NCBI GenBank assembly: GCA_024679065.1
Contig: JAGIQG010000009.1
Span: 99,634,001 to 99,698,000 of the forward strand
Length of the DNA: 64,000 bases
Source: Sphyrna mokarran
Lineage: Eukaryota
Reading direction: 5' to 3'
In this document: positions 3,539 to 57,100 of the stretch, one piece after another
How the letters are laid out: the number at the start of each line of letters is the position of its first letter
How positions within the stretch are numbered: position 1 is the first letter of the stretch
Notes under the pieces: generated by a model
Seen by the model: the letters and a program-made list of their open reading frames with translations, nothing else
What the model was told of the DNA's origin: nothing
Databases searched by the model: none
Program-made: the position numbers and the translations under genes

Positions 3539-6500
3539 CTAAAATGACATTAAATATTAGACTTTTCTAAGCCAATTATCCCCATTGATATGCTGCCCAT
3601 ATGGTAACATATCTGGTGTGCTTTCTGCAAACCTCCAAAACCCCGCCCACTCCGTGCGCATGTCCCGAAGCAAGACTAACCCAGAGCAAAACGTCAAAAA
3701 CGGCGTAACAAGACACATGAAATCATATCAACCCAAATTAGGACAATTAAAATAATATACTGTCCGTGTATGTGTATGCACATTTCTGAATAATCTACTT
3801 GCGAGTTCCTTTATCTTTTGAACTGTTGGAAGAAGAAAATATACGGATGCTAAGCATCAAGAAAGTTATTTCTCGGATGAAATATTTTCCCGTGTCACAC
3901 GTACGATATTATTTACTCTAGAATTAAAAAAACGTATGCTTTTCTTTAGCGGTGTCAAATAATGATATACAATATATAAATCTATATAAATATAACATGA
4001 ATCGCAATCATATATGTTAGTATTGATGGGTCCAATAGTTAAGACATCATTTCCTTAAATGTAATTCGAAAGGGGGGACATTAGTACACCTGATCAGCCA
4101 TTGCGCTTTCAGACAGGGCAAACGTTCAGGTGGATAGTGTTTGATCACCTATTTATGTGCAAATCTCAGTCAGATTGTCAATTCCGATTTGAGTAAATGT
4201 GGACGAGATGAATGCTATCTCCAGCTTGTGAATTAATTGCTTATGAATCCTGTAGTAAATATTGCACTGATCAATGTTTTATTGTTGCCCTTTCTTATGG
4301 GGCACAACAGAACACGAAGTGAAAATGAAAATCACAGAATATCACTGACTGTATTGCTCACCGTATGACCGACGGAGTCAGAGAGAACCCGAAACTTTCT
4401 ATAAGAGTGGGAGGCTGCACAGAACGCACGTGACATGACACTGTGCTGCGTGCTAACTTTTCTTGCGGTGTGGAGACTGAATATTTCGGACGTGTAACTG
4501 ACGTAATCAATTCTTTAGCAAGTTTGACCTTCCAACAAAATATCTTTCAGCCGAAATGCAGAGCACACCGTTAAATAACGAATTATTTGGGGTTCGGGTA
4601 GAATTGAGTGCACTGGGTGGTTTGGGTAAATATCTTTCAATCTCTAGATTACTTATGACCCCACTGTTACCGTTTTCTAATATTGTGCAGGCAGCACAAA
4701 ATTAATGGAGACAACGAACTCAACTTATGATTTAAAACAACGGAAGAGTCTCATTTTATTCCAGAGTGCTGGCCTCATAAAGATTTCTTTTCGAGGCAGG
4801 AGAGACACTGTCAGACGCATGCTGCCAATCGTTAAAATATATCAGTCATTAAGTCCTTGCCTAATGACATATTCAAGCAAGTTGAACCCTGTTTCCGATT
4901 TCCATTTGGAAATATTAGAATTAAATATCCCACCAATGTGGCTGAAGAATTAACAAATGTTTAGTTGAATTGCAGGTTGCTGGAGTGCGGAACTCTAATA
5001 TGTTGCTAAATTTCCACAAGAAGGAAAAAAAGAACTAGTTTCATTCCCAGCAATTTCTATGCAATTGTTTCACGGGATCTTAGAATCGTTACATTCCAGT
5101 GAAGATCGTACGCAGTTTTAAAGTTTTGCTGCTTCGCAGAAAGAGCATTCTGTCTCATTCTTCACAACACAATAACACAGGAAGAAGAAGCAGGGGTAGG
5201 CCACCAGGCACTTTAAGCAGGTCCAGCCATTAAATAGGATCATTGAGAATTTTGCTGGCCTCAATATCTTTTCTTCGGCATTTCCACTTGGTCCTCTAAT
5301 CTTATCTACCACATCCTTTCAGATCATTTATTTTCTGAGAGCAAAACAATTCCATTTCAAGTTGGATCGAGCATGCCTTCTCCACATTTTGCTTAAATTC
5401 GTTCCAATCTGTAATAAATTTTTAGGTGAAGCCACTTCCAGACATCACCTTTGACCATTCACTTGTATATTGATATGCTCTTGAGAACGATTTTTTAACT
5501 ATTTGTCTTGAAATCGTGTGCTATCTTCTTCCTTGAAATAATGAGTCAAAAACGTTACCTGAATTCCACATTACATTATACAATGTTTACTGCCCATGTA
5601 TCATTTCATTTTCTTGGAGAGATCTCAGAATATGCTAAGTGAAATCGATGAGAAACTATCTGTAAGTTGGAATTGTTCAGCACCGTGTGAACAAATAGAT
5701 AAAACATGCATTTGTCAAGTAACTCCCTCTGGCTCGGTTTGCAAACACATGTTATAGATTTGGGAGTAGGGTTATTGATTAAATCCCACATATAATGTTT
5801 TTCAGCTTAATTAACTATTTAAAGTTATCTTGATTCTCTGACAATCAAAATTGCATCCAAATATAACTGATTTCTCAAAGAATCGTGAGATTCACCAATT
5901 TGTAGCCGCAGTCTCGCATTTTCTGAAAAAAAAAATTGAAAGATCAAGAAAAAAAATCAATATGCTCATTTCAAATTATTGATCCACAGTAACTACAGTT
6001 GCATTTCCTCCCTCACCAGCGGCAATTTGTAATAGTGGTTTGACAGCACCAGATTTTGGCGAATGCAGTATGTGTTCACTGGGTTTAATCTGAGCCAAAG
6101 TCACTGGATGGAATATTTCTACAGGCAATCGAAACGGAGAAACGGAATTTTGCACGTCACAAATATATCCACCTTACCTTTTCTCAGTGCCTCCGCTGAG
6201 GAAAAATAAACACATACATTTTATTATGAAGGCGAAGTGAATCCATGCGGTGAAAACCTGTTTGTTAATCATTCAGATCCCACTTTGCACCTGTCACATT
6301 AGATCTATAAAATTGGGTGACTTGTGACTGCCATGTTAATGTCCATTGTGTCCATCCTTGGTTTGCCAGATCTATAACATTTGATGCGATTTAATTTGAT
6401 TTATTATTTTCATGTATTTTGCTATACAATGAAAAGCATTATTTATTGCTCTCTATACAGACAAAGCATAACATTCAAGACTACATAGGAGTCAACGAAA

Positions 6501-9500: not shown

Positions 9501-12500
9501 ACCGTTTTGCATACTTACGAGTTTGTACAGCACCTGCAATGATAATCAACTTGATAAGTATTAATACTGATTTCTTCATCGCTTAACGATCCACTTGTCT
9601 ATCTTGATGCATACTTAACTGTGTTACATTTTAACGAGAAAAGTTAAATATATTGCAATATATGTTTAGCCATGTGCTGCATTATTTGTGACTTTGCTCG
9701 ACAGATGATGTGTTGTTCGATAAGTAAATGGAAATTTAAGCACATGGATAGATATGCAGAGAACTGGGTATTTGCAGAGAGATGGATCACAAGTAGATAA
9801 ATTAAAGGCCTTCTGACGCCAAATTTCAGTGAATTCATCTTGAATCGCCAAAAGGTAAGACAAAGTGTGGTTACAGGAGGGTCTTTTTCTGCATGGAGGT
9901 CTGTCACTAGTGAAGTGCCCCAGGCATCTGTTCTGGGACCCTTCCTCTTTGTAATTTTTATAAATAACCTGGATGAGGGAGTGGAGGATTGGGTTGGTAA
10001 GTTTGCTGATGACACAAAGGTTAGTGTATAGTGTGGAGGAATATCAGAAGTTGCAGCGAGTCATTGATAAGATGCAAGACTGGGCAGAGAAAATGTGGAT
10101 GGATTTCAACCCAGATAAGTGTGTGGTGATTCATTTTGGCAGGTCAAATAGGATGACAGATTATAATATTAAGGGTAAAACTCTTGGCAGAGTGTAAGAT
10201 CAGAAGCATCTTGGGGTCCGGGTTCATAGGACATTCAAAACAGCTTCATAGGTAGAGGCTGTGGTTAAGAAGGCGTATGTGCACTGGCATTCATCAATCG
10301 AGTTTAGGAGTCACGAGATAATGCTGTAATTGTATAAGATAGTGGTCATACCCCATTTGGAGTACTGTGCTCAGTTCTGGTCGCCTCATTATAGGAAGGA
10401 TGTGGAAGCCATAGAAAGGGTGCAGAGGAGATTTATCAGATGTTGCCTGGGTTGGATGGCACGTCTTATGAGGACAGGTTGAGAGAGCTCGGTCTTTTCT
10501 CCTTGGAGACGAAAGATGGGAGGTGACCTGATAGAGGCGTATAAGATGTTAAGAACTATTGATCGAGTAGTTTCTCAGATTTTTTTCCCCAAGAATGAAA
10601 TGGTTGCCACTAGGCGACACAGGTTGAGGGTGCTGGGGAGCAGATAGAGAGGAATTGTCAGGGGTACGTTTTTCATTCAGAGGGTGCTGGGTGTGTGGAA
10701 TCGGCTGCTGGCAGTGGTGGTGCAAGCGGATTCGATAGCGTCGTTTAAGAAACCTTTGGATAAGTACATGGAACTTAGTAAGATAGACGGTTATAGGTAC
10801 GCCTAGTAGGTAGGGACATGTTTGGCGCAACCTGAGGGCCGAAGGGCCTATTTGTGCTGGAGGTTTTCTATGTCTCTATGTTTCTAATTGAGAAATTTGA
10901 TCATATAAGTTGTTTATTCAGTCATATAGAACGCCGGCATTTTCTGAGCGCTGTTTTAAAATGTTGCAATTTGAATCTTCAGCGCAATTTCTGCAGCATC
11001 TAAGCTGAGAGACATTGCTTGCATTTCCCTGGCATGCTATGATAATCACTTGTTTGAAACTATTAACTATTATTTTTTTCCTACGAGTTCAGTTAAAATG
11101 TTTGCTTGTATTATATTTTGTTCCTCTGGACAGCACTGTGCCTTTCTTGACCACTCTTTCTCTCTCTGTCATCACACCCAAATGCAAGTGCTGGTGAGCT
11201 AGAGATACTACTTCTTCTGAAACTCAACATGCACAATCACGCCATTCTTAAATAGCGCATAAGTTTTCTCTGTGCAGTAGTCTTCTGTTTCTGTGTTTCA
11301 AAGAAATCCTGGTTTCTAATATCGAGAAATGTCGTTGTCACACTACACTGCCCTCGACAATCACCCAGATCTTCAAGGTGCCATTTCCGTACAGTGGTAG
11401 GCACTCTTTGGAATGCTCTCCATTCAGTATTTTAGCAGCTGGGCAGTATTAAAACAAATGGCAATAAGGATCAGGCGATTTCGGTGGCAACACAAATAAT
11501 TCATGCAAATAAAATATCATAATTTAGATTTAGAATAATGTCTAATTATGCATCCAGCTCAGAACGAGACACAAGACGGACGCTGGAAGAAACATTCTGC
11601 AGGGTTAACCAACACGATTAATTATTTCTTCTTTCAATGCTGCAGTATACAATGTAGCTCTAAATCCAACTGATCATGTTAGTAAAATTATCGTTGAGTA
11701 AATTTATGTGACGAACCGTCATGAAACAAAATAACCTGCCATTGCTATGCAGTCAGCTGACAGAGAAAAAAATACCTATTACTTTATTTTTAATAATAGG
11801 GAGTAAACGATTTAGGCACTTACGTGCTGATTTGACTTCCAAGTCAGCTCCTAACAAAACAAGACACATAGAATGTAATTGTTGCAAAATTGCGGATAAT
11901 TACTCGCTGAATTTCAAGATCGAACCATATTGATCCTTCATCAAGATTCAACGGGGAACGTTTGGCAAAAGGAGTAACGTTTGTATTATTACAGCAAATT
12001 GTACAATTGAATTAACAAAATAAGTGCACGACATTATCTTTTATATGTCGAAAATGAAAAGTTTCCCGGCCTTACAGCAACGACTAATATGTAAATACTG
12101 AGTATCATTTTGTATATCGTCTGAAGGTGCTTCAGTACAAATCTATCAACCAAATCTTGATACCACATCACAGAGGAAACAATATTAAAGTACATAATGT
12201 ATGTAGTTGTTCAGAGCATAATTTATAGTGGATTATGGAATATGTGATTATTCTTGACTTTAAAAGTGATTTTGGAACATTGAATTGATTTTTACAGATG
12301 AGATACGCATGGTATTTCTTTATTAGTTCCAGTCAGTATTGCCAATCGGTGACGCATTCCACTGCTCACAGCTGGAATTTTGATTATATATTTAAGTTGT
12401 AAAATCCCCGGGAGGACATTCCCACAGAACTTTCATCACACTAGCCATTTATAAAATGCCTGCCTGGAGCTAAAATTTAATGAAAAACAACAAATGGAAT

Positions 12501-15500
12501 AGCGAATGAGAGGTCCCCTTAACCCGCGCGCCAATTGAAATGGAAATTAGGCGCTTTTTAAAACTTTTGCAAATTTGTGCGTTTTTTCTTGTTGCTTAAC
12601 TTCACTCCCGTTGCTGAACTCCGATCCGTTGCTTAATGATATGATTAATGCAATCTGTTTTGATGCTTACTGCAGTCAATGAGAGATTTCGCCACATCCC
12701 TTAATTCTGGAAGAGAAACGCCAGATAATTGGTCCACTACAGTTTTTAATTTGCATTGCAGAAGTTGAAAAGCAGCGCATTATTCGGCGTAACGATTATA
12801 TGGTTTGGTAATGGTAATACAGGTGCAGAATTCAAGAACGTAACAGGGAATTTAGCACAACCATTCATTATGATACGTTTCATTACAATGCATGCCAGTC
12901 ATGCATCCATATATTGTCTGCGCCATGTTAACGTGCAACATTTTAGCAGTAATTTGCCTGTCTCTCTCCTTAAATATTGACCATCTTGTTTTGTGCCAAA
13001 TTTTATTTAAGGGATTTCGCTTTCCGCTTTAGTGTTTATTTTGAAAGAGAAATTTGTCCCACAGCATAGTTCAACAGTTTATGAATTTGTATTGACATTA
13101 TTAACGGAAGATAATTTGTAAGAAGAAATATACTTCTTTCATTTAACCGTTTATAATATTATGTATAAACATTTGTTAAGAAATACCATCCGAAAGTATT
13201 CAAAGTATCTGAATGCCTTGCCCAATAATGGTGAAAATATATCCAGTTAATAATTTTCAGTGGAAATAAGGCAAATTTATTTTCCTAACAATCATTTGGA
13301 TTTCTGTCAAAAACGAGACAACAAATGATGGACTATGTATTCAAGTTATGTCCGTATTCAAATGATATTCAAAAGTTACACTGGTTTGAAGAACTGTTGG
13401 CAGTCACGTTCGGTGTCAATTTCTTTGTGTTGGCGATGGCAATGATCAAGTCAATGTCTGGTGAAAGACGTTTGAATGCAGTCATCATTATGGTTGGAAA
13501 ATAAAACTCTCACGATAAGGAAATTATCGGAGTGGCCATTATGTGAGTCTTTGAAATCATAAAGGGAAACAATTACATTGTCGAATGTTCCAATTGAAGT
13601 CAATTTTCGATTCGTATCCGTTCTTTTTATGGCATAGAATTTTGTGAAATTATTGTGTCCACCTTTGGCTATAGAAGACTCCTGCATCGATTATTTTTCA
13701 TCTATCTCTCCCATATGAGCTGCCATACTGAACCTACGATTTCTAACTTCTATATGCCGAGTAGGAGCGCAAATGAATTCTGCGACTTCATTCACAGGTA
13801 GGTGACAATGATTATTGATTTAAAAAAGGCAGCATTATGGACAAACATCTCCATACAAATAATACCCCATCAATATTATATGCACGAGTTGTGAGATATT
13901 CACCTTGCTGATTTCCGGTAATGTCTTTCGCTGAAAATGCAGAATCAAGTGGTAAATAATACGACAATTTTAATGCCCATTTTCACGAATTCGCTGCATG
14001 GTGTCAAGATCTTAAGTTTGGAATCAGAATTAAGGATACAATTATAATGAATTTTGGGATTGAACCTTACTTTTTTACTCTCTTAACGCACTGTTGTTTG
14101 CTATTTTACAGTCATCAATGTAAACATGAGTATTGCTAATGGCCACATTATTTTCAAACAGTAACATTTATAGGCAGTTTTTCTTTCAAACATTGCAGTG
14201 AGAAAATGCTGAGCAAAGCATTTGAGATAAGTTTGAGGAGTTTGGCGAAAGTGAGTTTTATGCAAATACGTGAAATCTGCAAATCCATGGCAGATAGGTG
14301 TGCTTTACGAAAGTAGATATCTTCCCTCTGTTGTAAGTCTCGAGCTGAACGCTACTTTTTTTTATTTCACTCTCCTTGATTTCTTACCATATTTTTGATT
14401 TTATACTTTCGTTGCTATCTTTTATGTTCCCGTAATTAACCTCTCCATCCGTGAAACAGTTTCTTCATCTCCATTTGAAAGAAAATTTCAGAATTTCAAA
14501 GGCGTCAACTGAATGTGTTATTAGTATTATCAGCTTATTAACTATTCTTAACAGTCACAGTCCCTCAATGATGGCCATATCTCACAGCAAGATAGCTTTC
14601 CAAATTGGCCGTTCGAACAATGATAAAGGCAATAGTCACTGTCACTCGATTCGGTGAAATGAAAAATGCAACTGAGATACTTACATTATGTCTAATCAGT
14701 CTACGTTTTCTATCAGAACATAAATCTAATCCCCATTGCACTGTCGCCTAAAGCTATTCAATTGGCTAAGCATCGTAGTCATTGAACGGAATTTGAAGTA
14801 ATTATTGCATTGTTTAATGTTGATAGCATGTGAACTGGCATAACTGCAGGGCTTGCTAAAATTGGAATCCAATTTGATAATCTTTGTTTATGTTTCCAAA
14901 GAAAGGAAACGGTCATTGAGAAATATTAGAACACAAATGTGATGGACTGTAGAATTAGGTAGTTCTTTATTTAACCGAGAATGAGCTTGAAAATGAGCTG
15001 TATTTAACGAACTAATCTGGTATTAATCTATTGATTAAAGTCATAGTGGTTTCGGATATTCTCAAACATCCAAACAATCATATTATTGACACACCTTGTC
15101 GTATTTTGGTATTTCGAATGTACAGGAAGTAGATGAATAATACCGAGATACTTTGTATCCCTGCAGTTGCTTTACGGAGACCATCAAGCAATGGGTTTGG
15201 GTGCGTACTGCAGGAAAGGTGCAGAGCCATACTCAATACTAGATACTGGGAGCCAATTATAAAGGAACAGCCAACCAGTCCGAGCCGCAGAATAAAAGCT
15301 CTTCAATTAAGGTGAAAACGAAACAGATAGCAAAAGATTTGCATTCAATACAACTCAGAGACATGAATGCAGACATAATGTGCAGACTGCATCGTCACAA
15401 CATTTGCAAAGAATAGGATGGGGCCTAAATAGGCATAGTATTTGATAAAAAACTGATTTTCGTCAATACACATAAGTTGAAATAACTGGCTGACAATTGG

Positions 15501-21500: not shown

Positions 21501-24500
21501 ATGAGCAGGAGAACATGGTAAAGGGGTTAGAAGGCCTTACCCTGCTCCTATGTTCTTAGGTTCCAAAGATAGGCAATAGGGCAAGTGATGAGATTTGAAG
21601 TTATTAGAAGTCTAATGATGACCACGGTGAGCATGAAAACGCTGTTGATTGTTCCAAAGCAATCTGGTTCATTAATGCCCTTTCGTGGAAGGGCATATCT
21701 CATCCTTGTCTACTTTACATGTTATGTCTATGCTCTGCAAATTGTGTAATTGTAAAATAGCCAAAGAAACCAAACAGTTCAAGGGCAGCTTTTGAGTGGC
21801 AACAAATAATGGCCGAACGAAACCAAATGTCGCAAGTTAATAAGACAAAAGGTTTGTAAGGTGCAGGAATAGAATTCGCCCATTCGGCCCATAGATTTGG
21901 TTCTGCCATTCGATCATGGTCGATATCCTCTTCATACTCATTTTCCTGCTTTCTCCTCATGATCCTTAAACCCATTCAGAATTACAATTCTTTCTATCTC
22001 CTTCTTAAATTTGCTCTCTGTTCCACCATCTACCTGAATTTGGGGTAGCCAAATATTCAAAAACATTTGGAAAAAGTGCATTTCCCTCAACTTTGTTTAA
22101 AATTTGCTGTCTCTTATCCTAAGACTGTGGTCTCTTGTCGTAGAATGTCCCAGATGAAGAAGCTTCCTTTTTTATCTATACCTTGTACCATTGTACATAG
22201 ACCAATTTGATCTCCCCTCATTCTTAAATTTAGACAATACAGGCCTAAACTGTTTACTCTCTCTTCACATGGTAAGCTCCTCATCTCCAGAATCAATCTA
22301 GTGATACTCACCTGAACTGTCTCCAATGATATTAATCTTTCCTCAAATAAAGGAACCAAAACAATAGTCCAGGTGTTGTCACAGCGTGCCTTGTATAGTT
22401 GAAACAATGCTTCCTTGCCTTTATATTCTATTAGTTTAGATATAACTGCCAACATTCTACTCGCTTACTTTAGTATCTGCTGTAGCTGCACGATCATTTT
22501 CTGTGACTCATGATGAGGGCACCACATCCCTCTGCATCAGGGCATTCAAAATTTCCCCCCATTTAGATAATAAGTCGCCTTCCCGTTTTTTTTTCGAGCA
22601 AAATGCAACAGAACAAATCATTACTTAGTTTCTGCCTTTCGAGCAATTTCTCCACTGCATAAAGCAGTTGGATTTGGAAATTTATATTGCTTAAGTTCTG
22701 TTGCAGAGACTTTTCATCTGCGAGAAGGTGAAAAGCTGTGGGGCAGGTACAAACGTGGGATTAAGCCTACTAGGAATTATTCCACGAATTCATTCAAGAG
22801 CAAAAATGAACTGTATTCATAGTGGCTTGTAGTCTCCTGCCTCGTGCGATTGAATTGTTTGAATGTTTGTGCACATGGGTGCGCGCGTGTATTTGTTTCA
22901 ATGCATCTGTTGGCATTGGCAATCTTGATCGTGGGGAATCATGGATTATGAGAACTCTCGTCACACAGTCCACCAAAAAAAAATGAGGCAGAAATTATCT
23001 TTCACAATTTCCGAAATAAATTTGGAGATTGACCTCTCTGTTGCCTTAAAGAATTCTACGTTGATTTTTTATTCAGGTGGGTTCAACGCCATTGACCTAA
23101 AAATTTGTGTCAGAAGAGCGTTCTGCTTATGAATGATTTGAACACCGGAAAATTAGATGGCATTAAGGTTACAGCCGATGAAATATTGACAATAATAAAT
23201 TTGCACAGTGGGACAGTTCTTGAAGCCTCATTCACATCCTTCCCTGAACTACAAAACTATCTTTACCTCTAGCAAAATTCACCGATGTGAATGCAACTAA
23301 CAGGAACGAGTTTGAAAAAAAAACACGATGGGTGATATCGTTATACATTAGTTCAATTATCTGCAAACATTAATGTTGCATGGTGATAAATCACGGACGA
23401 ATTAAAATTTATTAGACATGCGAATCGCTGAAATTATATTCTAAATAATTGGCAAATGGACGAGTACACACAACAGTTTTCCACAACCGCTAATAAATCT
23501 GAAGATTCCGTGCTCTTGAAGTATGGGTTCCACAAACCACTTTGCACACACTTGTACATTAAAGAAAACAAACGCAATACTAATTATATTTGAGTGGCAT
23601 ATGGTGTACTCAATGGAAATTTTACAGGCATAACAGAATCGCAGCAAAGTTACATAAAATTCTCATGAAACTATGTTATACGTTGCTGCCTATCAGCTGC
23701 GAGATACCAATGCATTTCTTATTTCTACACAAAACTTATAATCTATGACCATGATCTTAATATTGTCTGCTTCAAAATCGGTTAATGCTAACCTTTGGAC
23801 GCATGCAGATCTCTAATTTCTGTGGATTCATAATTTAAAAAAAATCTGTTATAAAACTTCCAGCTGCAATCCACCATCTGCAATAAAACAATTGTTTTCT
23901 TGTATACTTAAAATTCTTGAACAGCATACCTGCCCTCAATTGAGCTATTCTGTCATCTATATGATAAAGAATTCCATTGTTAATGAGTGACAATTGTTCA
24001 TATCGAGGAAGGCAACAGAACAAGCTATTAATGCATTGTGCTTTATTTCAAGAAAGTACAACATTGAGGGATAGCTATTCATTTGTTCATATCCCACAGC
24101 AATCAATTGGCAATTGATAGCCGATTTGTCAAGGTTGATTTGAAACGAAACTGCATGTTTACTGCCCCCTGATACATTTTCTATGGCAAAGCCCCTACCG
24201 GTCTTATCCAAATTACCAATCGATACCTATGATGCAGTTCAACTGTCTCAGACATTTGATAAACTTGCAATCAATCGGGATGAGTTGATGACAAATGGCT
24301 TTGCCAGCGAATCTTTATTTTTAGGCAATTTCAGTCGCTTTTTAACAGGACTTTCATTCATACAGTTGTAAGCTTTCATATCTGAAAGGATAACCGTAGT
24401 TTAAAAAAAATCAGGTGGAAATGAGCCATTGCAGGCTGAAATCGCGGATTTGTAGATATTATTTTGACCTGTAGATTGAAAACCTTGACTGTGCTTTTAG

Positions 24501-36500: not shown

Positions 36501-39500
36501 GGAAGCCAATGTTGTTCGTAACAACATATATTTTGAACTGGCATCACACTTCTAGATGCAAAATCAAACCGTATCAAACAGCAAACATCTCCGGCAGTTG
36601 CTACCCAGTCACTTACAAATTATAACAAGCCAAAGCCTTACCTGTCAAAACATATTGATGCAAAAGTGTTTATTTTACTTTTGCCTTTGTGGTTAACAAT
36701 CTTGAATTTGGAATCCGTTCTATGTCTTTAATTGGGAACTGGTCTACTTAAGTTTCAAGCCCTATCTAGAATGCTAACTTGGACCACGTAAGGGCAAGGA
36801 CATTGCTTACGTTAGATTACTAAAAATGGGAGTAAATTATCCCGAAGAAATGAAATATGTGTAAGGGTCATGTGTGCTCAGATGTGACTTGTTTCCTCTG
36901 CCGTTTAAAGATTTCTGTTCCCTTTCCTCATTCTATAAAATAAAAACTGTACCAGCGCACAAATGCCCCCGCTCTGAATGATAGATGACATAAATATCAG
37001 TCATTCAGTGAAGGATCGTTGAAGTCGCAAGAACTGGAATGATACTTCAGCTTTTCGTAGAGAGCGGCATGGCAAACTGGATATAATTCAGGATTGATTG
37101 CACTAAACTTTTTTGGAATAACTGATACTTCCAATATCACATAGAAGAACAGTGACAATTAGATTTGCATTGCTGCCTCAGCATCAGAGAACCAGGTTTG
37201 ATTATGGCCCTGACTGACTGTCTTTGTGGACTTTGCATATTTTCCCTTCATCTGAGTCGTCGTTCCTGATTTTCTCCAAAGTCCGGGGATATGTACAGTA
37301 GGACGGAAGGCATGCCAGATTGTCCCACAGCATCCTGTGATCATTGGTTAGGTGGTTTAGCAGATACATCGATGGTGCGGGTTTGGTAAAATGCTCTTCC
37401 AGAGAGTCAGTAAAGTCTAAATAAGTCACATGGCATCATTTTGCATTGTGGGGATTATATTGCAGCTTCCAAAAAAATGCGCTAAACACGTTAAGGAATT
37501 TCTTCACAAATATTATTTCAGAACAAATACAATGCCCAGTAGAGGGAAATGTTGAAACAGCGGAAAGTTAATGTGAATCACAGATTAAAGAAGGACAATG
37601 AAGTACGTGTTGAGTAAGAAAAAAATCAAAAGAGAGGAAAAGTTATATTTACCACAAACAAATAAACACATGCACATTGCTGGTATTACTTAATAGATCC
37701 CGTTCTTAATGACATGAACGAATCGTTTGAAAAGTTAGTAAAAGAAAATAATAATAAAAACATAGTGCATCTATGAAGGGGTGTTATGAACAAGGAAGTA
37801 AAGTCAAAATCGCATTTTTCCTACGTTTATGAAATACCTCACAAGGGAAATAAATAAATTCAATATGAAATAAACAAAAATGAAATAGGATGACTGACCT
37901 AATATAAAATCAGCAATATAGGGCTGGAAGTGAATGCATTCACATGCGATATAAATATGTTACATTTTGAAAAAAGAAATGATGGATTAGTATGGTTCCA
38001 TACAATTCGATTGGCGTGGTATGGAGTGAATCGCCTTTAATATATACATGACGTATGTCCACTTTTACATACTTGTGTCTCGGATTGTTTTCTGCAACTC
38101 TGAAATAAATGAATGATGATACTTGCAATTATGAAGAAGAGCAACAATCATCTATTGAGGGAACACCACAGAAAAGAAAACTGTTGAATAAAAGTAAGTG
38201 TGGGAGGTTCGCCTTTGAAAAAAGATCCTTCTAAGCATACTGGTAAAACATTGACGACTGGACTCGTTCTTTAAAAGCTCGTCAATGTTTTATTCACTGT
38301 GAAATCAGTGTAACGCAGATTCAAAGCACCGACCCGTTAGAGATGACTGATGCTAATAGGAAGAAGCAAACTTTGAAGATACTGCAAAATATTAAATAAC
38401 GTGCAAAACCTTCAGTGATAATAAAGAGCATCCATGGATTGAATACCTTCGTTGACATTTCTTATGTAAATACATTCGGAAAACATGTTTGAAATCCTGT
38501 TTCTCATATGAAAATAAAATTGACAGTAGTTTCAACGTGAAGCGACAAGACGGTGCCGAAATACATTTTCGAGTCTTATGAAAAGGCAAATACATGGCAA
38601 AATGCTAATAACTTGTGAAGTCTTAGTTGCATGCGTTTCGTTGAAATCTGTTTATAGCTTATAATCAAATATTTCACAGTGGCGGCTTTATTTCGTGTTA
38701 AATCAACCTTAAGTTAAATTATAATTAATACAGATGCGGACCGAGTTAGAGTGTGGAAGCCACCGTGTTCTCAGTTATTACATGCACATCAATTTGCGGA
38801 TTTCAGGACATATGAATGCGGTCCTGGAAGTCCAGTGCGGGAACAGAGCTATTGCTTCCCGGAACGTTTTTATTTCTTGCCCTGGACGATTGTATGGGCG
38901 AGTCACATTAGGTATCTTTTCGTTTAGATTCCGAATCACCATTGGTTGTAGGCGGAATGGCGAACGAATTTCGCCTTCATTCTGAGGACAGTTGATATCC
39001 CGGGGAATGTGTGATTTCGAATTTTCTGGTGAAGTCTTTTAGTGATTTTATTTTCCACTTTTCGGTAATGAAGATCGAATTCAAAATTAAGTTGCATGCC
39101 GAGATAAGCTAATGAAATACGTATACATCGTCTCGAAAATGCTGAAGACCCACTGATTATCCGTTTTAGTTTAAATAAAATGATTGCAGGCCCGGGAAGG
39201 GCAATATATCTCTGCGTCGTTTTGTGGCTTCACATTCGAACTATCGTCAACGTTATTCTCATATGAGAAACAGGATTTCATACGTGTTCTCCGAATGTAT
39301 CTGTATAATAAATATCAACGGATGTCTCATCCATAGATTTGGTCAAAAAAGGACCATGATATGGAGACGCCGACGTCTGACTGGGTGAAGGATCAGAATT
39401 CTCACAACGCTAATATGAAGTCCATAAAGTTTTTTTTGTAATCACGAGGTTTCGAAGCAATGCCCCTTCATCATGTGAGTCGAGTTCGAAAAAAGAAACC

Positions 39501-42500
39501 GAAATTATTTCGGAAGACTTCCAACAGTCAAATGCATGGAAATTGATTGGACATTGATTTATACACGTACATGCCAAGAACAAACGAACTTGGGTTGCTG
39601 ATAATGCGTCCGCTGTACTGGAGATACGTTCCTGCTCGGAAATTGTAATTAGATGTTAATTTAGGGCCAAGAATGATGGAAGACAAGGGACGGTAGGCGT
39701 GATAGTAAAAAATGTCATAAGGATAAGAGTACTGTTAGCTCATAAGATGATCACGGTGGATGGAGGTTCAAAAAGTGAACCATTAGTTGGCACCAGAATG
39801 TTTCTGTACCCTTCGCAGTTGGAACACCTCTGGACTATAAAACACAACATGCGTCATGCTAATAATTCATGTTCTGCATAAATGTAACGTGTACTTTGGG
39901 TTCCTCAGTTTTTCTCAGTAAAGAGAAAAAATGATTTGGTTACAGTAGATTCTTAATTTGATCCCCGTATTCATTCAACCATATACCTCTCAATTAATAT
40001 CAAACCCCGAACAATGTTATGGAATGAATTTTTGCCAGATGAAAAAGAGAATAATGCAGTCGGAAACACCGAGAATCATTTTTGGCTATATATTTGTTTC
40101 GGGTGAACAAAATATCACATAATACAGCTAGACATCAAAATATCACTTAGATATCACACCATGTTCTGAAGTTACCGATTCTAAAACTATTAACCAATAA
40201 TGAACAGTTAGATTCAATGCAAATTGTAATTGGGCAATGATCGGTCGATAGAACTGCTCCGGCAGCGGGTCTTGGGTCAAAATACACTTCTGTGAGTGTA
40301 AGTGAATTCTGGAAGATCGGGATTCCCTATTGGCACAATGATAGTTCCGAACTCTGCTTTTGGTTTTCAAAGTATATTATTCGGATCTTACTTTTCTGAC
40401 TTGTCTGAAGGGCGAATTCTGTAAGAGGAAATACAGTGTTACAAATAAGGTTACGCGCTGAGTTTAGCATTGCGTCACACTAAACTTGGTATTATTAGTG
40501 TGAAAATTGAAACACCAATACATCGGGATAATATCACTGCAACACTGTCTTGCGCGAAGCAGACAAGGGAACTGAATGCGTGTCTACAAGTATTTTGTGT
40601 GGAGAAGGGGGTTCCATACATTTCATGTGATCATTGTTTCTTCAGAAAAGGGGGAGTGTGAGTTGGATCATGGGCAATAACAGATGATGGAATGCTGTCC
40701 AAACTGATAGCTGTTCTAAAAGGAGAAGATTTCCAGTTAGGGATTGCAAACAATGCAAACATTATTTTAACACCTGAGAGATCCGCTTTATTTATTCTAA
40801 TCTGACTGCCATATAAATTCAAAAACGGAGCCAAAAGCTTCCAATCATGAGAGCGAGACACCCTCCAGATGTTCTCTGTGCGGACAAAACCTCTTGCATT
40901 CAACTGGTCAGTCGACATGCAAACAAAGTCACAGCTTGGGGGAAACGGTGGAAATGCGGAAAATGAGAAGGAATTCAAGTAAATATCAGATTTGGAAACT
41001 CATTGAGCACTTATACTGGCGAGAGATCGTTTTCGTTTTGCCTGTGTGGGAATGGATTCACTATAGTGTTCGCCTACAATCATAACGGTGAACTCACACT
41101 GAAAAGAGGACAGTTATCTGCACACTCTGTTGGATGAATTTTAGGTAGACATCGGCCTTCACCAACGAGGCCAACCTGGAGAAAGATTATTCATCTATCC
41201 TTGTGTGGAAGAAAATTCAATTATTCACTTCTACTACTCAAACACCGTGTATTCACGCAGTGAATAAGCTGTTCGTCGGCTCCATTTGTGGGAAGAGATG
41301 GCTACAGTATTCCGAACTGCTGACACACTAACGAATTCAAATGGAGGGAGACTGTCCACTTGGGTCCCATCTCTCCCAAACTTCCGAAGAATTAATTCCT
41401 TAATTAACTTGGTGCCACGTGAGTGTGTGTCAACATGAAATGGAAATCTTGTTTCAGACGGATTGCAAACGGAATCAGGAACTGAGGAAACATATTTAGT
41501 GCAGTGCAGGTTCGGAAATGAACATTCGTGAACGGCTGCAGTGCGTATTTGATAAAACATTTGCTGTTGCACACTGGTTTGCAAAATCTGAACAGAAAGT
41601 ACGTGGTGCTTGCAAAAATGTGACACAACACTTGGATGGATTTTTTTTACTGTATACATTAATGTTAGTTTCCTGAGAAGAAAGCTTGACGGAAAGAACT
41701 AGATGAAATATTACATATTTTAAATCTACTTTCGGGCAATTAGGCAGCTATGCTAATGTAATATCTTCATAAAGTATCCGCTGCTAAAATCAGCATTATC
41801 AATGAGATTATATTCCCCGTTAAAACTGCAAACCATTCACTACAGTTGCAAACACGACTATTCTACTTCTATGAACCAATTAAATATTTATATTTATTTA
41901 GTAGTCACAAGGAAGACTTACACTAACACTGTAATGAAGTTATTTTTGGCTAGATATTTGTTGCGGGAGAACAAAGTATCACATGATAGAGCTAGACATC
42001 AAAATATCACTTAGATATCACATCATATTCTGAAGTTACCGATTCTAAAACTATTAACTAATGATGAGCAGTTAGATTCAATGCAAATTGTAATTAGGCA
42101 GTGATCCGTCGATTGAACTGCTCCGGCAGCGGGTCTTGGATCTAAGTACATTTCTGTGAGTGTAAGTGAATTGTGGAAGTTCGGAATTCCCTATTGGCAC
42201 ATTCCCTTAGTTCCCCTAGTCATCACTCGCCGGTGCCTGTTCGGGTCAATGTACTTAACCAACACGTCTTTCAGACTACGGGAGAACTCGGAGCATCCGG
42301 AGGAAATCTACGCAGACACGGGGAGAACGTGCAAACTCCACGCAGAAAGTCACCCGGCAATCGAACCCAAGTCCTTGGCACTGTGAAGCAACAATGCTAA
42401 CCACTGTGCTATCGTGTTGCCCCACATCGCTGTAAGGGTACAGTGACTTCATTTCTGTTGTGTAACTGACAGCATCTCTGTCACTTAAGAACAGAGTCGG

Positions 42501-45500: not shown

Positions 45501-48124
45501 ACAGTGACACTTATATCTCTCTAGTTACGCTCTACTGGCATGAGCACATACAATAGCAGCTTCTAACTTGGAATATGTATTTTTCACTTAAATCGTTGAG
45601 AAGTTCAATTAGAAACAAAGTTATTCTGCTAACATTGGGCATTTATTTAAGCTGTACCAGAATAAAAAAAATATATTCGTATAGATATTCCAGTTGTTAC
45701 CTGAGTCATGAGCTTCTATCAGTTCTGGAAGAGAAAACAAAAGTCTGATTGTGTTAAATTAACATCTCAAGCTAAAACAGCTTTAGTTAAGCGACATTGT
45801 GAAAACGATAATTTAGCCTTACTCACCGATTTCCGCCAATTGTTTGGAATACGTGTTAGAATCTACTGTTAGAACTAGTTTTTGACCGTTCGGTCATTAG
45901 AAGTCGTTTTCTTTATTTCATGAGATGTTTATGTCACTGGTTGGCAAGGACATCTGTTGCCCATGTCTAAATGCACTTGACATAATGGTGACGGATAGTC
46001 GTTAGAACAACTGCACTCCAGCAAGTGGAGGCAAGGCTGTCGTGCTATTCAAAGAAAGTCCCAGGATTTTGATCCATCTTAAAAGGAAGAAAAGCAGCAT
46101 GGAACGATATCGGATACCCAAATTATTGCACATTTCGTACAATTTTGCTCTCAAATTGTTGACAGCGAAAAATACTATTGTTTGCACACGCAAGAGGGTA
46201 ATTGCTGTATTGTCTTGACATTTCCATCACAGATTTTATTCCAAATTCGTATTGGAAGTGCTCGTGCACCATGTCAATATAATTAAACGAAACAAAACAG
46301 TGCAAGAGCATGTGAAAATTAAGTGCAACAAACAATATAAACATACTTATTCCGTATCTTACCTTTTTCTTTGTCGGTTAGTAACGTTTCTGCCCAATAA
46401 AAAAAAACTATCGTCACAAAGCAGCAATGAGGCTATATAGTCGATAAAAACTGAATATTACGAGGAATTAGGAACATTCCTTGAAAGTGAGTCACTGTAC
46501 AGAAAAAGTTCTCATAATTAATTTTTATGTTAATATAGATTTATTGACTTGAGGTATTTTTATTTGAAGAATAGATTGTAGATCTTGCACTGCATGATGT
46601 GGGTGGATGTTTTTCTTTACTTCAAAGTAACACACCAGCAAGGGAATTACTATAATTTATTTGTTAAGAGATTAATTATAGTTGTTCAGAACTAAACAGT
46701 GGCCTTAGAAGTAATTATGTGGTCAAATACAACTTGCCGCAGCCGATGAGAAACACCGTTGCAGCTAAGGAAAATTTTCAAAACATGGGATCGATTTTAA
46801 AATTTCAATCACTTGCTACAACGTTGGATGGTTCATGTGACAGGCTCATATAATAGCCAATCCATTATTGGTAAACGTTAAGAAGGGAAGACTATGATAA
46901 GAAATGGAAATGTCGGTATTTTGTTATGATTATTTTGAAAATATTCAGCCATTGAAGGTTCTACGGTGAAAAGTAGCCATTAAATGTTCAACTTATTTGT
47001 TTCTAATAAAAGCCGACATATGTTCAGTTGCGCGCTCAAACAAATATTGCGTGGTTGCAACTGCAAGCAATTCATAATTAATTTATTCATACCTAACGAT
47101 TCATATTTTGTCTTCAATTCTAAAGGAAAATTACAATTTGTTTAGTCTCGTGCATTATACAAACTGAGAGATAAAGATAAGAGTGGGATATGATCGATCC
47201 AACAGAACATTGAAACGTAATAACTGTAGCAATGAAAAAAAAATGCTAATTGCAGCAAACGTCCTTGGAAACTGCACACGGAAGAGAAGATCATAGATAT
47301 CATTTCGACTTCCGAAGAAACTAGCTGCATCATAATACTCTAAATAGGACTTCCTTATTCCTGTATTTCTTTCTAAATGTATTCAGCACTAACAATTTTG
47401 ATGTTGTTTCCATAGAACCACGTTAGAAGAAATTAGTTTCCAGCATTATATCATCAACGTAACGATACCTGCAAATGTTGTTCTTTCAAGTGAGAATGAA
47501 CTCCCGCATAAATGCTGAAATCTAAATTAAAAACAGAAAATGTTGCAAAGACCCAACAGGTCTGGTGGCTTGTGTGGATAGGAAAGTGTTGTAATGTTAG
47601 GAGTCTGTATGAATATTCTTTGAAGTGAAAGATAGAGTGTCATGTGATCGACGTACTTCCCATCTACACCCCTCCCCATTTTGTGTAGCACCTGCGGTCC
47701 CCCCACATCTTCTTTGAGCAAAACCCGAAAAAGTCTCGACTGATACTACTCTCCTCTGCCTGACTGTACTTCATTCCTCACGAATCAGCTTCTGTTTCAA
47801 CTTGTCTCACTGCTTACAAAGTAAAAGCTGCGGCCATGGGTATCTGCATGTTTCCAGGTTCTGCTTATTTTTTTGTGGGTTATGTCCAACATTCTTTGCT
47901 TCTATTCTGCTCAGGCCTGTACTCAGAAAGTTTTCTCCATTATGTTATTAACAGCATAATCAAAGCTGAATTCTAACACATATTTTGCACAAACAATAGA
48001 TATCAATACATTTCGTAATACCACAGCATCATCACACTCCATAACTGCTGCCTGACCAATAATCGTTATAGCATCCTCGCTATTTATTGAAAGACGTTAA
48101 TACTTTCTAAAGACACAAAGTAGC

Positions 48125-48165
<41 letters not shown>

Positions 48166-54100: not shown

Positions 54101-57100
54101 GGTGTCTGTGGAATCGGTTGTAGCCCCCAGTTTCAAAATCGAATTAGATCATATTCGGAAAACAGAAATTAAGTGCTATGGGATTAAAAAAAAACTCATT
54201 ACACAAATTTGTCGCAGCCACGACGGGTCAAGTGCCTGCTTGAATGCTCAAACTATTCTGTGAAGCCACATTTAAACTAAAGTGCTTGCGATGATGATGT
54301 TAGGCAAGAACAGATATCACACAGTTTGGTTGAATATTATGCTGGACAGCACAATAAGCCTTAAAGAGAGTAGTTTGAAATAGTATCATATTGCTGGCAA
54401 GATTTTTCTTATGTGGCACCGTCTCTCTAGCTAACTGTTACACCATTAATAGTGTTTTCTGTGCTCTTGCCTTATCTATGTTTTGTATCTGTGATTGTCA
54501 CGTAAGATGTGCATTTTGTAGAATCTCTGACTGTCTTCTGTAGACCTTAATATAACTCTATATTGAACGTATTTAATTTCGCCCCCCAGGTCCGGAAATA
54601 AATATTGCTACGTCTGTCGATATTTGGTACAAACAAAACTGCCACGTAATTTGGCTTCTACAAGAGAGCCGTCCAATCACATCGATCCTTTCAGGAGATT
54701 GTCAGAGAACAGAATTCTGTTTATGCCTTTAAATCAATTTTACTCACTCACCTACAATATTATACATCAACACTTCATGAAATAAAACTATGAATTCTCA
54801 AAGTATATTACCTTTCAATTGTTTCACCTTATCCGCTGATAAATCGGAAGTAAATATAGCATGTAAGTCTTTTTATAGAACAGGGAATCATGATGTGTTA
54901 TGACAATCTTCTATGCTACTTAGTTGTTTGGATTTGTGCGATGGTTCAAATCAGAGAACATTGAGGTTCCTCAATTCCACAAAAGAAAACAACCCACTAG
55001 CAGAAACCGTTTATGGAAAGGAAAGGGAAAAAAAAATATCGGTGACCTGGGCAATTCCCCCTCCCCACTCCACGAAAAGAATAGCATTTTAAATAGCCTC
55101 AAGTTATTCATAGCCAACATGTTTCGCATTTTTCGATGCAATTCAACGTGACCCTTTACTATCGCAATTACCATTATGCTGTCAATAATTCGGATTGAGG
55201 AATGGATATTGAAAACTCCACCTGCTGTGTGAGATACATTGAAGGTTGTGCTGAATGTCTTCTTGCAACGGCAACCCCCATCTTTACGACGTAAACGGAA
55301 AGAAACAATACCTGCCATGTCCACATAAAACAAATCATAGGATACTTTACCGAGTTGTTTTCGACATTTTATCACCTCTGAATTAAAAGGAGAGCGACAG
55401 ATAAATTGTGAGATTCATCGATTTGAAAGAATGCTAAAACACAGCAGGTAATAACAGAAAATGAACAATAAATTCGGCTGCCCTTGAAGCATCTGATTAG
55501 CCAGGAATATGTTGGGTTTTTCGAATCGGTATCACTCATCTTCAGGACTGAAGACGGTTAAGTACTTCTCGTTCTCGTGCTACAGGTAATGGAGACACAT
55601 TTCCCTTGTCAACCTATTCGAAACATCGTATATTTGTATACAATTTCACTCATTTGGCGTTGTGCAAAAAAGAACAAACCCAGAAACTTCAAGCAAATTT
55701 TCAAGTAAGCACATGAATTCCTGGAACATTTTTTTTGTAAATCTTAGAAACTTCTTAAGTGTACTCAGCGATACGAATACAATGCTCTGTTTGTGGGTTC
55801 AGTAACAAGTTACGAAGGTTCCGTAATGCTGCGTTTGGACCGTATGGGCAGCTCTTAATGCTTCTCAGTCTTTCTGGGAATAAGTCAGGGGTGTCCACAT
55901 TGGGGCAAGACATTTTGAGCTCTGCCGCTTTCCAATTCAATCAATTAAGGCCAGTTCAAGAAAAGTCATAGTGAGCTCTCTTTTTCTGATTGGACCGCAT
56001 GCACTCAGATGTAGGATATTCACAACTGCCCAAGAGGTTGAGGGGGGAATTGTCAGCAAACCACTCAGCTGCTCTCCCGAAAACTCAACATCGACAGGAT
56101 ACTGCCACAAGCTCGAGCTGTAGGAAGGTTTTCTGCATATTGTTCCAGGGATGAGGCACGTGGAAGGAATAGAAACGCAAGGTCACTTTTAGAAAAATAC
56201 AAGGTAGGGGGGGGAGGTGGATTTGAATATGGTCGTCATAAGCATGATAAGTTTTGCCAGCATAGATTAAGGAAAAAAAATACAAATATGTCTGACAAAA
56301 ATAACAGAAGAAGCTGATTTTCGACGACTGACAAAGAGGACAAACAAAACGAGTTGGTGGGGGTGGGGGGTGGGGGAGGAAAACTATTATGCGTTGATTT
56401 GAAACGCAATAACAAAGCTTTTGCTGCCGAGTTATACAGTGCAATGTTTAAAAATAAAATTGGACAAGCTTCTGAAGTGATCGAAAAGGGTCTTTAAGGC
56501 TGAACGGGAAAAGGCAAGTTTTGGAACTGAGTTGCAGAAAGATGATATGGAAAACAGCGTTTCATGACCCGTTGAACGTTTCGAAAATTCTATTATACTA
56601 TTAGAATAGCTTAACATTTGCAGACCTCGCAGATCAATAGGAATCAATCTGACCATTTTCAATGCTTACATTCTGTTGGGAGATAAACGTAATTGAACAG
56701 AAAAAAACAATGCAAGCATAGGTATACATCATCTGAAAAATCAGCGACCTACTTACACACTCAAAACAATTCCCTTTGGACTTCCTACAAGAGATTTCCC
56801 CGCTCCGCTCGCTGGGCTTTTCTGAGCAGAAAACGTCGTACCATGAGGTTCCACTTGCAATCCAAAGTAATAGTCATGATGGTATGCAATGGGACACAGA
56901 AAGGCTTCGAAATGATGCCAGATTGCTGGAACAAAATTGCACCATTCGTAATAAAAAAAAAAGGAATCCACTTCTCACCGCTATCTTCTGGTACTCTCTT
57001 GACTCTTACGTTTCCTGAATGCATAAAGGAAAGCAAGTGTTCTTTCATCCATACGTTTTTGATGACGCACAAGACTTCTCCGACATCCTGCATCAAATTT

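Follow-up and report, generated by a model that had tools for sequence, protein, structure and literature searches.

The window, a stretch of 64,000 nucleotides from Sphyrna mokarran (contig positions 99634001-99698000), lies entirely inside one long minus-strand gene model, here called copy A, and its 22 micro-exons, 19 within positions 5896-55377 and three outside (33, 36 and 24 nt), probably form the middle part of this copy of an elasmobranch coiled-coil/B30.2 family. Copy A has at least 88 exons over ~345 kb, with a first coding exon of 132 nt at 99847298-99847429 and a decayed B30.2 exon at about 99502860-99503378 (contig coordinates). Micro-exons of at most 36 nt make up 86 of the 88, every one a multiple of 3, with 46 exons of 27 nt, 21 of 36 nt and 12 of 24 nt among the 88, and the joined exons give 836 residues free of stops. 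A tandem paralog, copy B, was modelled with 126 exons, which is a lower bound. The exon chain is based on homology and on RefSeq predictions that split the gene; the search in copy A was confined to the multiple-of-3 class after pairing with the paralog had placed the signal there, and part of the exons were entered by hand from candidate lists. At least six members of the family were examined in the Sphyrna mokarran genome, and eight B30.2 exons of this type are listed there. The micro-exons of the window, with the support for each, are the following (letters are heptad positions).

63282..63314, minus strand, 33-nt phase-1 exon outside 5896-55377; paralog pair, gap-0 match to the S. torazame model
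56979..57014, minus strand, 36-nt exon outside 5896-55377, linker with Pro; paralog pair, S. torazame model
55351..55377, minus strand, 27-nt exon starting at g; paralog pair only, missing from the S. torazame model
54812..54835, minus strand, 24-nt exon; paralog pair only, missing from the S. torazame model
47093..47119, minus strand, 27-nt exon starting at c; A and B fall on the same S. torazame residues
46363..46389, minus strand, 27-nt exon starting at e; paralog pair, S. torazame model
45701..45724, minus strand, 24-nt exon; paralog pair, S. torazame model
40392..40418, minus strand, 27-nt exon starting at a; paralog pair, both catshark models
38073..38099, minus strand, 27-nt exon starting at c; paralog pair, both catshark models
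36190..36216, minus strand, 27-nt exon starting at e; paralog pair, both catshark models
33001..33036, minus strand, 36-nt exon starting at g; paralog pair, both catshark models
31880..31906, minus strand, 27-nt exon starting at e; paralog pair, both catshark models
31727..31753, minus strand, 27-nt exon identical in the paralog, conserved stutter-type register break; paralog pair, register model
23930..23956, minus strand, 27-nt exon starting at e; paralog pair, both catshark models
23793..23819, minus strand, 27-nt exon with the second conserved register break; paralog pair, catshark model, register model
13904..13930, minus strand, 27-nt exon; paralog pair, S. torazame model
12671..12706, minus strand, 36-nt exon, GC donor in the paralog's copy; both catshark models
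11824..11850, minus strand, 27-nt exon; paralog pair, both catshark models
9519..9533, minus strand, 15-nt exon, linker; paralog pair, catshark model
6178..6195, minus strand, 18-nt exon, linker with Pro first; paralog pair, catshark model
5896..5922, minus strand, 27-nt exon starting at g; paralog pair, catshark model, register model
3799..3822, minus strand, 24-nt exon outside 5896-55377; paralog pair, catshark model

The micro-exons in 5896-55377 are real, far beyond chance. On the minus strand of this interval there are 11 candidates of 27 nt flanked by AG and GT, compared with a mean of 0.98 (maximum 5) in 400 block-wise dinucleotide shuffles, and on the plus strand there is one. Collinear exon pairs of the same length shared with the tandem paralog number 93 for the minus strand and multiples of 3, and 0-7 in each of the five other strand/length classes. 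Two catshark RefSeq models, which overlap across the window and map exon by exon, align onto the interval exons with zero gap. The confirmed set, all in phase 1, comprises 19 exons (thirteen of 27 nt, two of 24, two of 36, one of 15 and one of 18). An earlier note on this DNA had listed 21 exons, 11 of them of 27 nt and none of 21 nt; 27 nt is indeed the modal size and 21-nt exons are absent from the interval, but its two 30-nt exons, its 33-nt exon and its second 18-nt exon are not confirmed. The comparison of exon sizes that it proposed, here made with the paralog and the catshark models, supports the 19. Most of these end in G (13/19) and start with AA or AG (12/19), as it had described, and the Glu that it expected most junctions to regenerate is found at 11 of 19.

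None of the 19 other in-frame candidates in the interval has a paralog counterpart of the same length at ≥50% identity, and none of the ten extra candidates that were scored improves the heptad score. Candidates of 30 nt, one of 34 lengths scanned, also exceed the shuffle maximum (6 observed, maximum 5 in 400 shuffles), so copy-specific 30-nt exons may be present in the interval. Scanning for GC donors brought up three of them in copy B and no new one in the window, and spliced-chain tails that paired B30.2 residues with intron pieces were discarded as spurious.

We lean slightly towards copy A having a transcript to itself rather than sharing a longer one. A and B agree in 15 of 16 residues from the Met onward, compared with 2 of 4 before it, and each copy retains an upstream exon that has splice sites and contains in-frame stops. 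Since the 132-nt first coding exon of A is phase-1 symmetric and open, and same-strand arrays lie upstream, A is perhaps no gene in its own right. It could be an internal duplicated block of one huge transcript ending in the B30.2 exon of B, extending over A and B (about 745 kb) or over the whole same-strand array from ~101.34 to 99.10 Mb, with the B30.2 exon of A as an intronic relic; we regard this as rather unlikely, and it would leave the reading of the coil unchanged. Such a transcript would explain conserved rod exons next to a dead terminal exon. It is consistent with the candidates of 27 or 36 nt that continue upstream, present on this strand in 15 and on the opposite strand in 6 of 19 sampled stretches of 10 kb, and with one exon type recurring twice more, at 100.65 and 100.98 Mb. 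Two protein searches gave no B30.2 match between 99.104 and 101.418 Mb, and a search for a decayed one where the upstream array ends reached a score of 91, below the background maximum of 94.5. The peak of conservation from the Met onward and the stop-containing exon kept in both copies argue against it, as do the strong acceptor (7.7) and the AATAAA 336 nt into the terminal exon of A, and the few candidate exons in the ~50 kb upstream of A. It is unlikely that the 2.3-Mb same-strand array is a single gene, with several hundred micro-exons, a rod of thousands of residues and one B30.2, grown by register-preserving block duplication and with its length set by splicing, in which A would be an internal block with a fossil terminal exon. 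No reliable exon chain resulted when shark models were mapped to the upstream array, and a blastn match hinting that this array ends like copy B turned out to be a repeat.

Together the window exons probably specify a long coiled-coil rod with a heptad that is canonical for the most part. The hydrophobic period is 3.48 in A, 3.50 in B and 3.49 and 3.52 in the two catshark models, and depends on exon order, as shuffled orders matched the real power at 3.5 in 0/300 cases for A, 0/300 for B and 2/300 for the window segment. The 3-4 heptad pattern continues through the junctions and is unbroken for 97 residues across ten window exons. In the register model of copy A, which uses approximate home-made weights that favour heptads by design, there are 12 register jumps, compared with a mean of 27.6 (minimum 20) in 60 shuffled orders, and the model is unchanged over jump costs of 3-6. 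Both catshark models share this register and its two conserved breaks. Of the 36-nt exons in this model, 18/21 start at g, and the commonest class of 27-nt exons starts at e (24/46); a 36+27 pair therefore amounts to three heptads. Exon order would in this way preserve register, with sums such as 12+9 or 9+8+9+9 residues closing on multiples of seven.

The earlier note had proposed a non-canonical coil built from 9-residue modules, and this is contradicted by the heptad running across junctions, by the loss of the 3.5 signal on shuffling and by the joined peptide, which has no 4.5-residue periodicity. The periodicity check that it suggested gives a heptad for the whole gene (3.48-3.52), and for the window segment alone a peak at 3.54-3.55, with a power of 4.03 at 3.5 and 3.94 at 3.6. 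Its alternative of a segmented coil holds in small part, since there are two conserved register discontinuities, both within 27+27 pairs, and Pro/Gly linkers divide the rod. The linkers also break the predicted helices of the catshark protein in a single-sequence fold of low confidence (mean pLDDT 55, with the B30.2 unfolded). Its point on exon skipping stands: as the exons are symmetric in phase 1 the frame is always kept, and no single interval exon has a residue count that is a multiple of seven (0/19; 5/18 for adjacent pairs), so skipping one exon would shift the helical phase.

These features could be read together as a 9-residue module derived from one 27-nt exon, with single-exon skipping tuning the phase or length of a coil that is segmented or non-heptad (18/5-type). 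The window peak at 3.54-3.55, the two breaks in 27+27 pairs and the low-confidence helix breaks at linkers in the catshark prediction fit this idea, and Narcine RefSeq isoforms differ by single blocks of 8, 8, 11, 12 and 23 residues, none of these lengths being divisible by 7. We find it quite improbable, given the order-dependent period of 3.5 over the whole gene and the 97 unbroken residues; the 27-nt exons do not all belong to one sequence class and sister genes alternate 27 and 36 nt, and the Narcine isoforms are predicted models of a family member and possibly splicing noise.

The heptad rod has most likely grown by amplification of a 36+27 exon pair and of larger blocks, rather than of one 27-nt exon. 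At least two sequence classes can be told apart among its 27-nt exons, with an identity of 0.45 inside the e-start class and of 0.28-0.29 to the c- and g-start classes, and in sister genes 25/27 and 25/31 neighbours alternate 27 and 36 nt, which makes amplification from a single 27-nt ancestral exon, as first suggested, too simple. A 9-residue exon is followed by a 12-residue one in 17/21 cases in copy A (p 0.003), copy B has 24/31 adjacencies counted both ways, and in one S. torazame model exactly one 9+12 pair is repeated in tandem. The pairing is not strict, with 36-36 runs and single 36-nt exons absent from one copy.

In copy B the terminal exon, which encodes a SPRY domain (Pfam 4e-10), has a TGA located 21 codons from the end. 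The homologous exon of copy A is frameshifted, has many indels, is open for 29 codons to a stop and is about as diverged as introns, so that the copy A rod likely ends without a working B30.2 domain; ~109 kb of 3' exons of copy B have no counterpart in A. The rod of A matches the shark models as closely as the rod of B does (66/66% and 67/68%), and dN/dS between A and B is 0.46 over 685 codons and 0.62 over the 158 codons of the window (weak). In intact relatives, by analogy with the architecture of TRIM, BTN and BG proteins, the rod would dimerise and hold the B30.2 at a distance in the cytoplasm. Conservation of the rod long after loss of the binding domain would point to a role for the rod itself, and copy A is most likely a head-less rod that may act as a structural coiled coil, as the chicken BG-derived zipper protein does, or as a partner of B30.2-bearing paralogs. 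A recently dead pseudogene, to which the frameshifted B30.2 exon, the unmatched 3' exons and the window dN/dS would point, is very unlikely, as the 88 exons retain frame and splice sites and are as near to the shark models as those of B, which would require death much later than the loss of the domain.

The RefSeq models of the family (XP_038671249.1 in S. canicula, XP_072329363.1/362.1 in S. torazame, XP_0697754xx in Narcine, XP_078422387.1 in Cetorhinus, XP_060706632.1 in Hemiscyllium and XP_048472904.1 in Rhincodon) are automatic, split and variously named, and none spans the whole gene; the catshark B30.2 is intact. Pfam returned SPRY or nothing for the homologues and the ESM Atlas only generic SPRY clusters, and a collagen-type or lectin-neck gene was rejected, as no such domain was found and the terminal exon is SPRY. 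A literature search, with most subscription journals outside its scope, found no paper on a shark coiled-coil/B30.2 family.

Excerpts of the BG literature describe BG and a BG-derived zipper protein as long coiled coils encoded in many phase-1 micro-exons of variable number (PMC4046983, PMC5938342, PMC8813856). The commonest 27-nt class here agrees with the chicken BG exons in placing the split codon at e and hydrophobic residues in codons 4 and 7, and copy A, too, has no functional B30.2. Relative to the same excerpts, the present genes differ in having no Ig-V or transmembrane exon, exons of 27, 36 and 24 nt instead of mostly 21 nt (2/88 exons of 21 nt in A, 4/126 in B and 0/19 in the interval), at least 88-126 exons instead of about 27-38, and relatives that end in B30.2. 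Butyrophilins (BTN/BTNL), among them those of Sphyrna mokarran at 109-111.6 Mb of the same contig, have a tail of short phase-1 exons with a single B30.2 exon behind it, with 27-nt tail-exon candidates in 6/6 loci inspected in this species, and short heptad exons followed by a B30.2 exon are likewise present in the paralog and the catshark model and decayed in copy A; here, however, IgV, IgC and transmembrane exons were not found, the tail is more than 10x longer and the B30.2 sits on a separate long branch. In an unrooted B30.2 tree the family is on its own branch (100/100), and grouping with BTNs has a p-AU of 0.050.

Searches with tblastn using fish and own-genome BTN Ig domains gave no match at E≤0.05 in 864 kb, with a working positive control; Ig-V motif scans were negative, and a V-set search had no hit near the locus among its best 150 matches. 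The highest 19-residue hydropathy (KD19) is 0.62 in the A model and 0.23 and 0.53 in the catshark models. The idea that a BG or butyrophilin gene has its Ig and transmembrane exons further upstream and its cytoplasmic tail in this array, for which the BTN layout of a phase-1 micro-exon tail plus B30.2 (as excerpted in PMC8813856), the 27-nt candidates in the species' own BTNs and the e-start register of BG 21-nt exons (as excerpted in PMC5938342) could be cited, deserves hardly any credence, as the 864 kb gave no Ig match, the 28 BTN-type IgC matches all lie outside the 97.4-109.2 Mb part of the contig, the S. torazame model goes from its first exon directly into the rod and the B30.2 domains form their own clade. 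The BG framing of the earlier note thus falls away, with no Ig or transmembrane exon found, a family that ends in B30.2 and 27-nt tail-exon candidates in the species' own butyrophilins.

Like class IV TRIMs, the family has a cytoplasmic coiled coil, here predicted, and a C-terminal B30.2, the latter frameshifted in copy A and carrying the late TGA in copy B; many TRIMs lie on the same contig, and RefSeq names relatives 'zinc-binding protein A33-like' or 'TRIM39-like'. It differs in having no RING/B-box match in 864 kb (the same query detected three TRIMs in another search, the positive control not being in the same search), and in the three TRIMs of the neighbourhood B30.2 is preceded by exons of 23 nt and ~117 nt, not by micro-exon arrays. 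A 27-nt penultimate exon, for which the literature search gave no support in mammalian TRIM5/BTN, is absent in these three TRIMs. Schistosome micro-exon genes (PMC8293314) also carry most of their coding sequence in symmetric exons no longer than 36 nt; homology is not implied, and in the shark genes exon order appears tied to coil register.

With a heptad rod, the surprise of a non-heptad coil largely dissolves. If the interpretation is correct, sharks and rays would possess, next to their butyrophilin and TRIM clusters, a family of B30.2 proteins that are soluble and have very long coiled coils, and whose genes current annotation splits and misnames. The family would be a natural record of coiled-coil growth by exon duplication with register kept, arisen independently of the similar chicken BG tails and built on a 36+27 unit instead of 21 nt, and copy A would be a case of a rod conserved long after its binding domain was lost.

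Scanned for splice sites with approximate vertebrate weights of our own, the window (G000:C1548:99634001-99698000) gave 27-nt candidates at 9/83 on the minus strand vs 1/98 on the plus strand. In the interval 5896-55377 of the window, where the micro-exons lie on the minus strand, there are 11 such candidates, where 400 shuffles average 0.98 and never exceed 5, and 21-nt candidates are at the chance level of the same shuffles. Same-length exon pairs between copy A, the gene model containing the window, and copy B, its tandem paralog, number 93 for minus-strand lengths divisible by three, and every other strand/length class has 0-7. Two catshark RefSeq proteins picked up by homology, S. torazame XP_072329363.1 (covering the 5' end as far as exon 11824; exons are named by their start in the window) and S. 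canicula XP_038671249.1 (exon 45701 to the B30.2 domain), overlap within the window and match copy A exon by exon with zero gaps. This gives 22 confirmed exons in the window, 19 of them in the interval (13 of 27 nt, two of 24 nt, two of 36 nt, and one each of 15 and 18 nt); for exons 55351 and 54812 the support is that of copy B only. The earlier note had proposed 27 nt as the modal size and no exon of 21 nt, and both statements hold (13/19 and 0/19). Its two 30-nt exons, its 33-nt exon and its second 18-nt exon are unconfirmed, as none of the 19 other in-frame candidates in the interval has a paralog counterpart and none of ten tested raises the heptad score. Since 30-nt candidates in the interval lie above all 400 shuffles, copy A may have copy-specific 30-nt exons.

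The introns of the window hold further elements, including a LINE that we take to be of the CR1/L2 type:

Window 57245-61058, minus strand: near full-length LINE retrotransposon, lying in the intron that separates exons 63282 and 56979; ORF1 of 324 aa with a GDS-type esterase motif, ORF2 (endonuclease/reverse-transcriptase) broken
Window 40078-40337 and 41942-42201: intronic direct repeat, 260 nt, 92%
Window 43289-43518: tandem duplication, 115 nt, 97%

The nine-residue exons tile a heptad, not a nine-residue repeat; the rod has Pro/Gly linkers and a few discontinuities that are real. The hydrophobic periodicity of the rod peaks at 3.48 in copy A, 3.50 in copy B, and 3.49 and 3.52 in the catshark models, power at 4.5 is not above shuffles, and the real power at 3.5 is matched by none of 300 exon-order shuffles in either copy and by 2/300 for the window segment, where the peak is at 3.54-3.55 and 3.5 and 3.6 are indistinguishable. 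These periods, the missing 4.5 signal and the dependence on exon order leave the non-heptad module previously suggested mostly unsupported. Under a seven-state register model, 18 of the 21 36-nt exons of copy A start at heptad position g, and its 46 27-nt exons start at e (24), c (9), g (7), a (5) and f (1), a table unchanged across the jump costs tested; the model places 12 register jumps in copy A vs 27.6 (minimum 20) in 60 shuffled exon orders. Within the window, 97 residues run in unbroken register from exon 55351 into exon 31727, followed by two breaks, at the 27+27 pairs 31727 and 23793, both also present in the two catshark models. The argument that skipping one exon would shift helical phase is borne out as arithmetic, with 0/19 single-exon skips in the interval being register-neutral, and 5/18 adjacent-pair skips are neutral. 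In Narcine, the isoforms predicted for one family member drop 8, 8, 11, 12 or 23 residues, which would fit either such skipping or splicing noise.

The 27-nt exons form at least two sequence classes, which are defined by register and hence not independent of the register model, and one of these is nearer to the 36-nt exons. Of the three related genes that were sampled on contig C668, two alternate 27 and 36 nt (25/27 and 25/31 neighbours) and the third does not (7/14 neighbours), the S. torazame model has a tandem repeat of exactly one 9+12 pair, and a shorter paralog at 101.42 Mb has the same exon sizes. Six B30.2 exons of the family type are listed at G000:C668:8.56-14.32 Mb, and the three sampled loci there carry 27/36-nt micro-exon arrays with 5' ends beyond the sampled stretch. 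In the same genome, candidate exons of 27 nt follow the transmembrane exon and precede the B30.2 exon at all six butyrophilin (BTN) loci inspected, whereas the exons before B30.2 in three neighbouring TRIMs measure 23 nt and ~117 nt; thus, 27-nt exons are nothing unusual for this lineage, and the likelier source would be a tail of BTN type. A B30.2 tree gathers the ten rows of the family on a single branch (100/100); constraining family and BTN B30.2 to group together gives a p-AU of 0.050, so that kinship is neither shown nor rejected. Those of the ten rows that have a name, or belong to this genome, are all elasmobranch; of 149 new homology matches, 12 were named. At G000:C1548:81.1-81.8 Mb and 91-113 Mb there are a cluster of more than 20 V-set exons and B30.2 exons of TRIM and BTN type by the dozen, a content that would be consistent with an MHC-linked region.

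Copy B is collinear with copy A, about 70% identical and 300-400 kb downstream. There are at least 88 micro-exons in copy A (46 of 27 nt, 21 of 36 nt, 12 of 24 nt and two of 21 nt; 836 residues, zero stops) and at least 126 in copy B (68, 31, 15 and four, respectively), part of the set having been added by hand from candidate lists and spurious chain ends removed.

G000:C1548:99847298-99847429: first coding exon of copy A, 132 nt, with ATG
G000:C1548, near 99503.4 kb: terminal exon of copy A
G000:C1548:99103312-99103835: SPRY exon, terminal in copy B
G000:C1548:99304574, 99172665 and 99170128: GC donors at three copy B micro-exons
G000:C1548:99623351 and 99624975: 24-nt copy A exon doubled within a 1.6-kb local duplication immediately downstream of the window
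G000:C1548:99.90-101.34 Mb: further micro-exon arrays on the same strand

An acidic Tyr motif in the first coding exon, DEYINI, is conserved in A, B and S. torazame and by its resemblance is a possible SH2-binding site. We lean slightly towards copy A being a stand-alone gene. The same-strand array continues upstream of it to about 101.34 Mb, from 99.104 to 101.418 Mb no B30.2 was matched, and no decayed B30.2 was detected at the end of the next upstream array; copy A could therefore be one inner block of a single huge transcript, which we consider the less likely reading. Separate genes are favoured by conservation that peaks from the Met onward (15/16 residues), by the upstream stop-containing exon kept in both copies, and by the strong acceptor of the copy A terminal exon. 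The last exons of the upstream array are similar to the C-terminal portion of the Narcine model, which by this likeness may be the counterpart of that array rather than of A or B.

An in-frame TGA lies 21 codons short of the end of the B30.2 exon in copy B, at a position that is Arg in the catshark and other sharks; the residues past it still match a basking-shark model (16/20 by eye) up to the homologous stop, and copy A shares the TGA at this position. Possible explanations are read-through, an assembly error and a recent CpG change. The homologous exon of copy A has many indels and a stop after 29 codons, and ~109 kb of the copy B 3' part is without counterpart in A. Yet the rod of copy A lies as close to the shark models as that of copy B, at 66/66% (A/B) over 450 residues and 67/68% over 216. 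A/B dN/dS is 0.46 over 80 exon pairs and a weaker 0.62 over the 20 window exon pairs. We regard a pseudogene as an improbable description of copy A.

Searches of 864 kb gave no match to Ig or to RING/B-box, and the copy A model has no hydrophobic segment. As described in one set of sources (PMC4046983, PMC5938342, PMC8813856, PMC6790196, PMC12841164, PMC3137616, PMC8293314), BG is defined by Ig-V, transmembrane and mostly 21-nt exons, and the same set defines BTN and TRIM; the copy A gene differs from all three in that their defining head features are absent. No published description of this elasmobranch B30.2 family was found in the literature searched, and the family is apparently undescribed; the gene to which these micro-exons belong is a large, real and under-annotated member of it.
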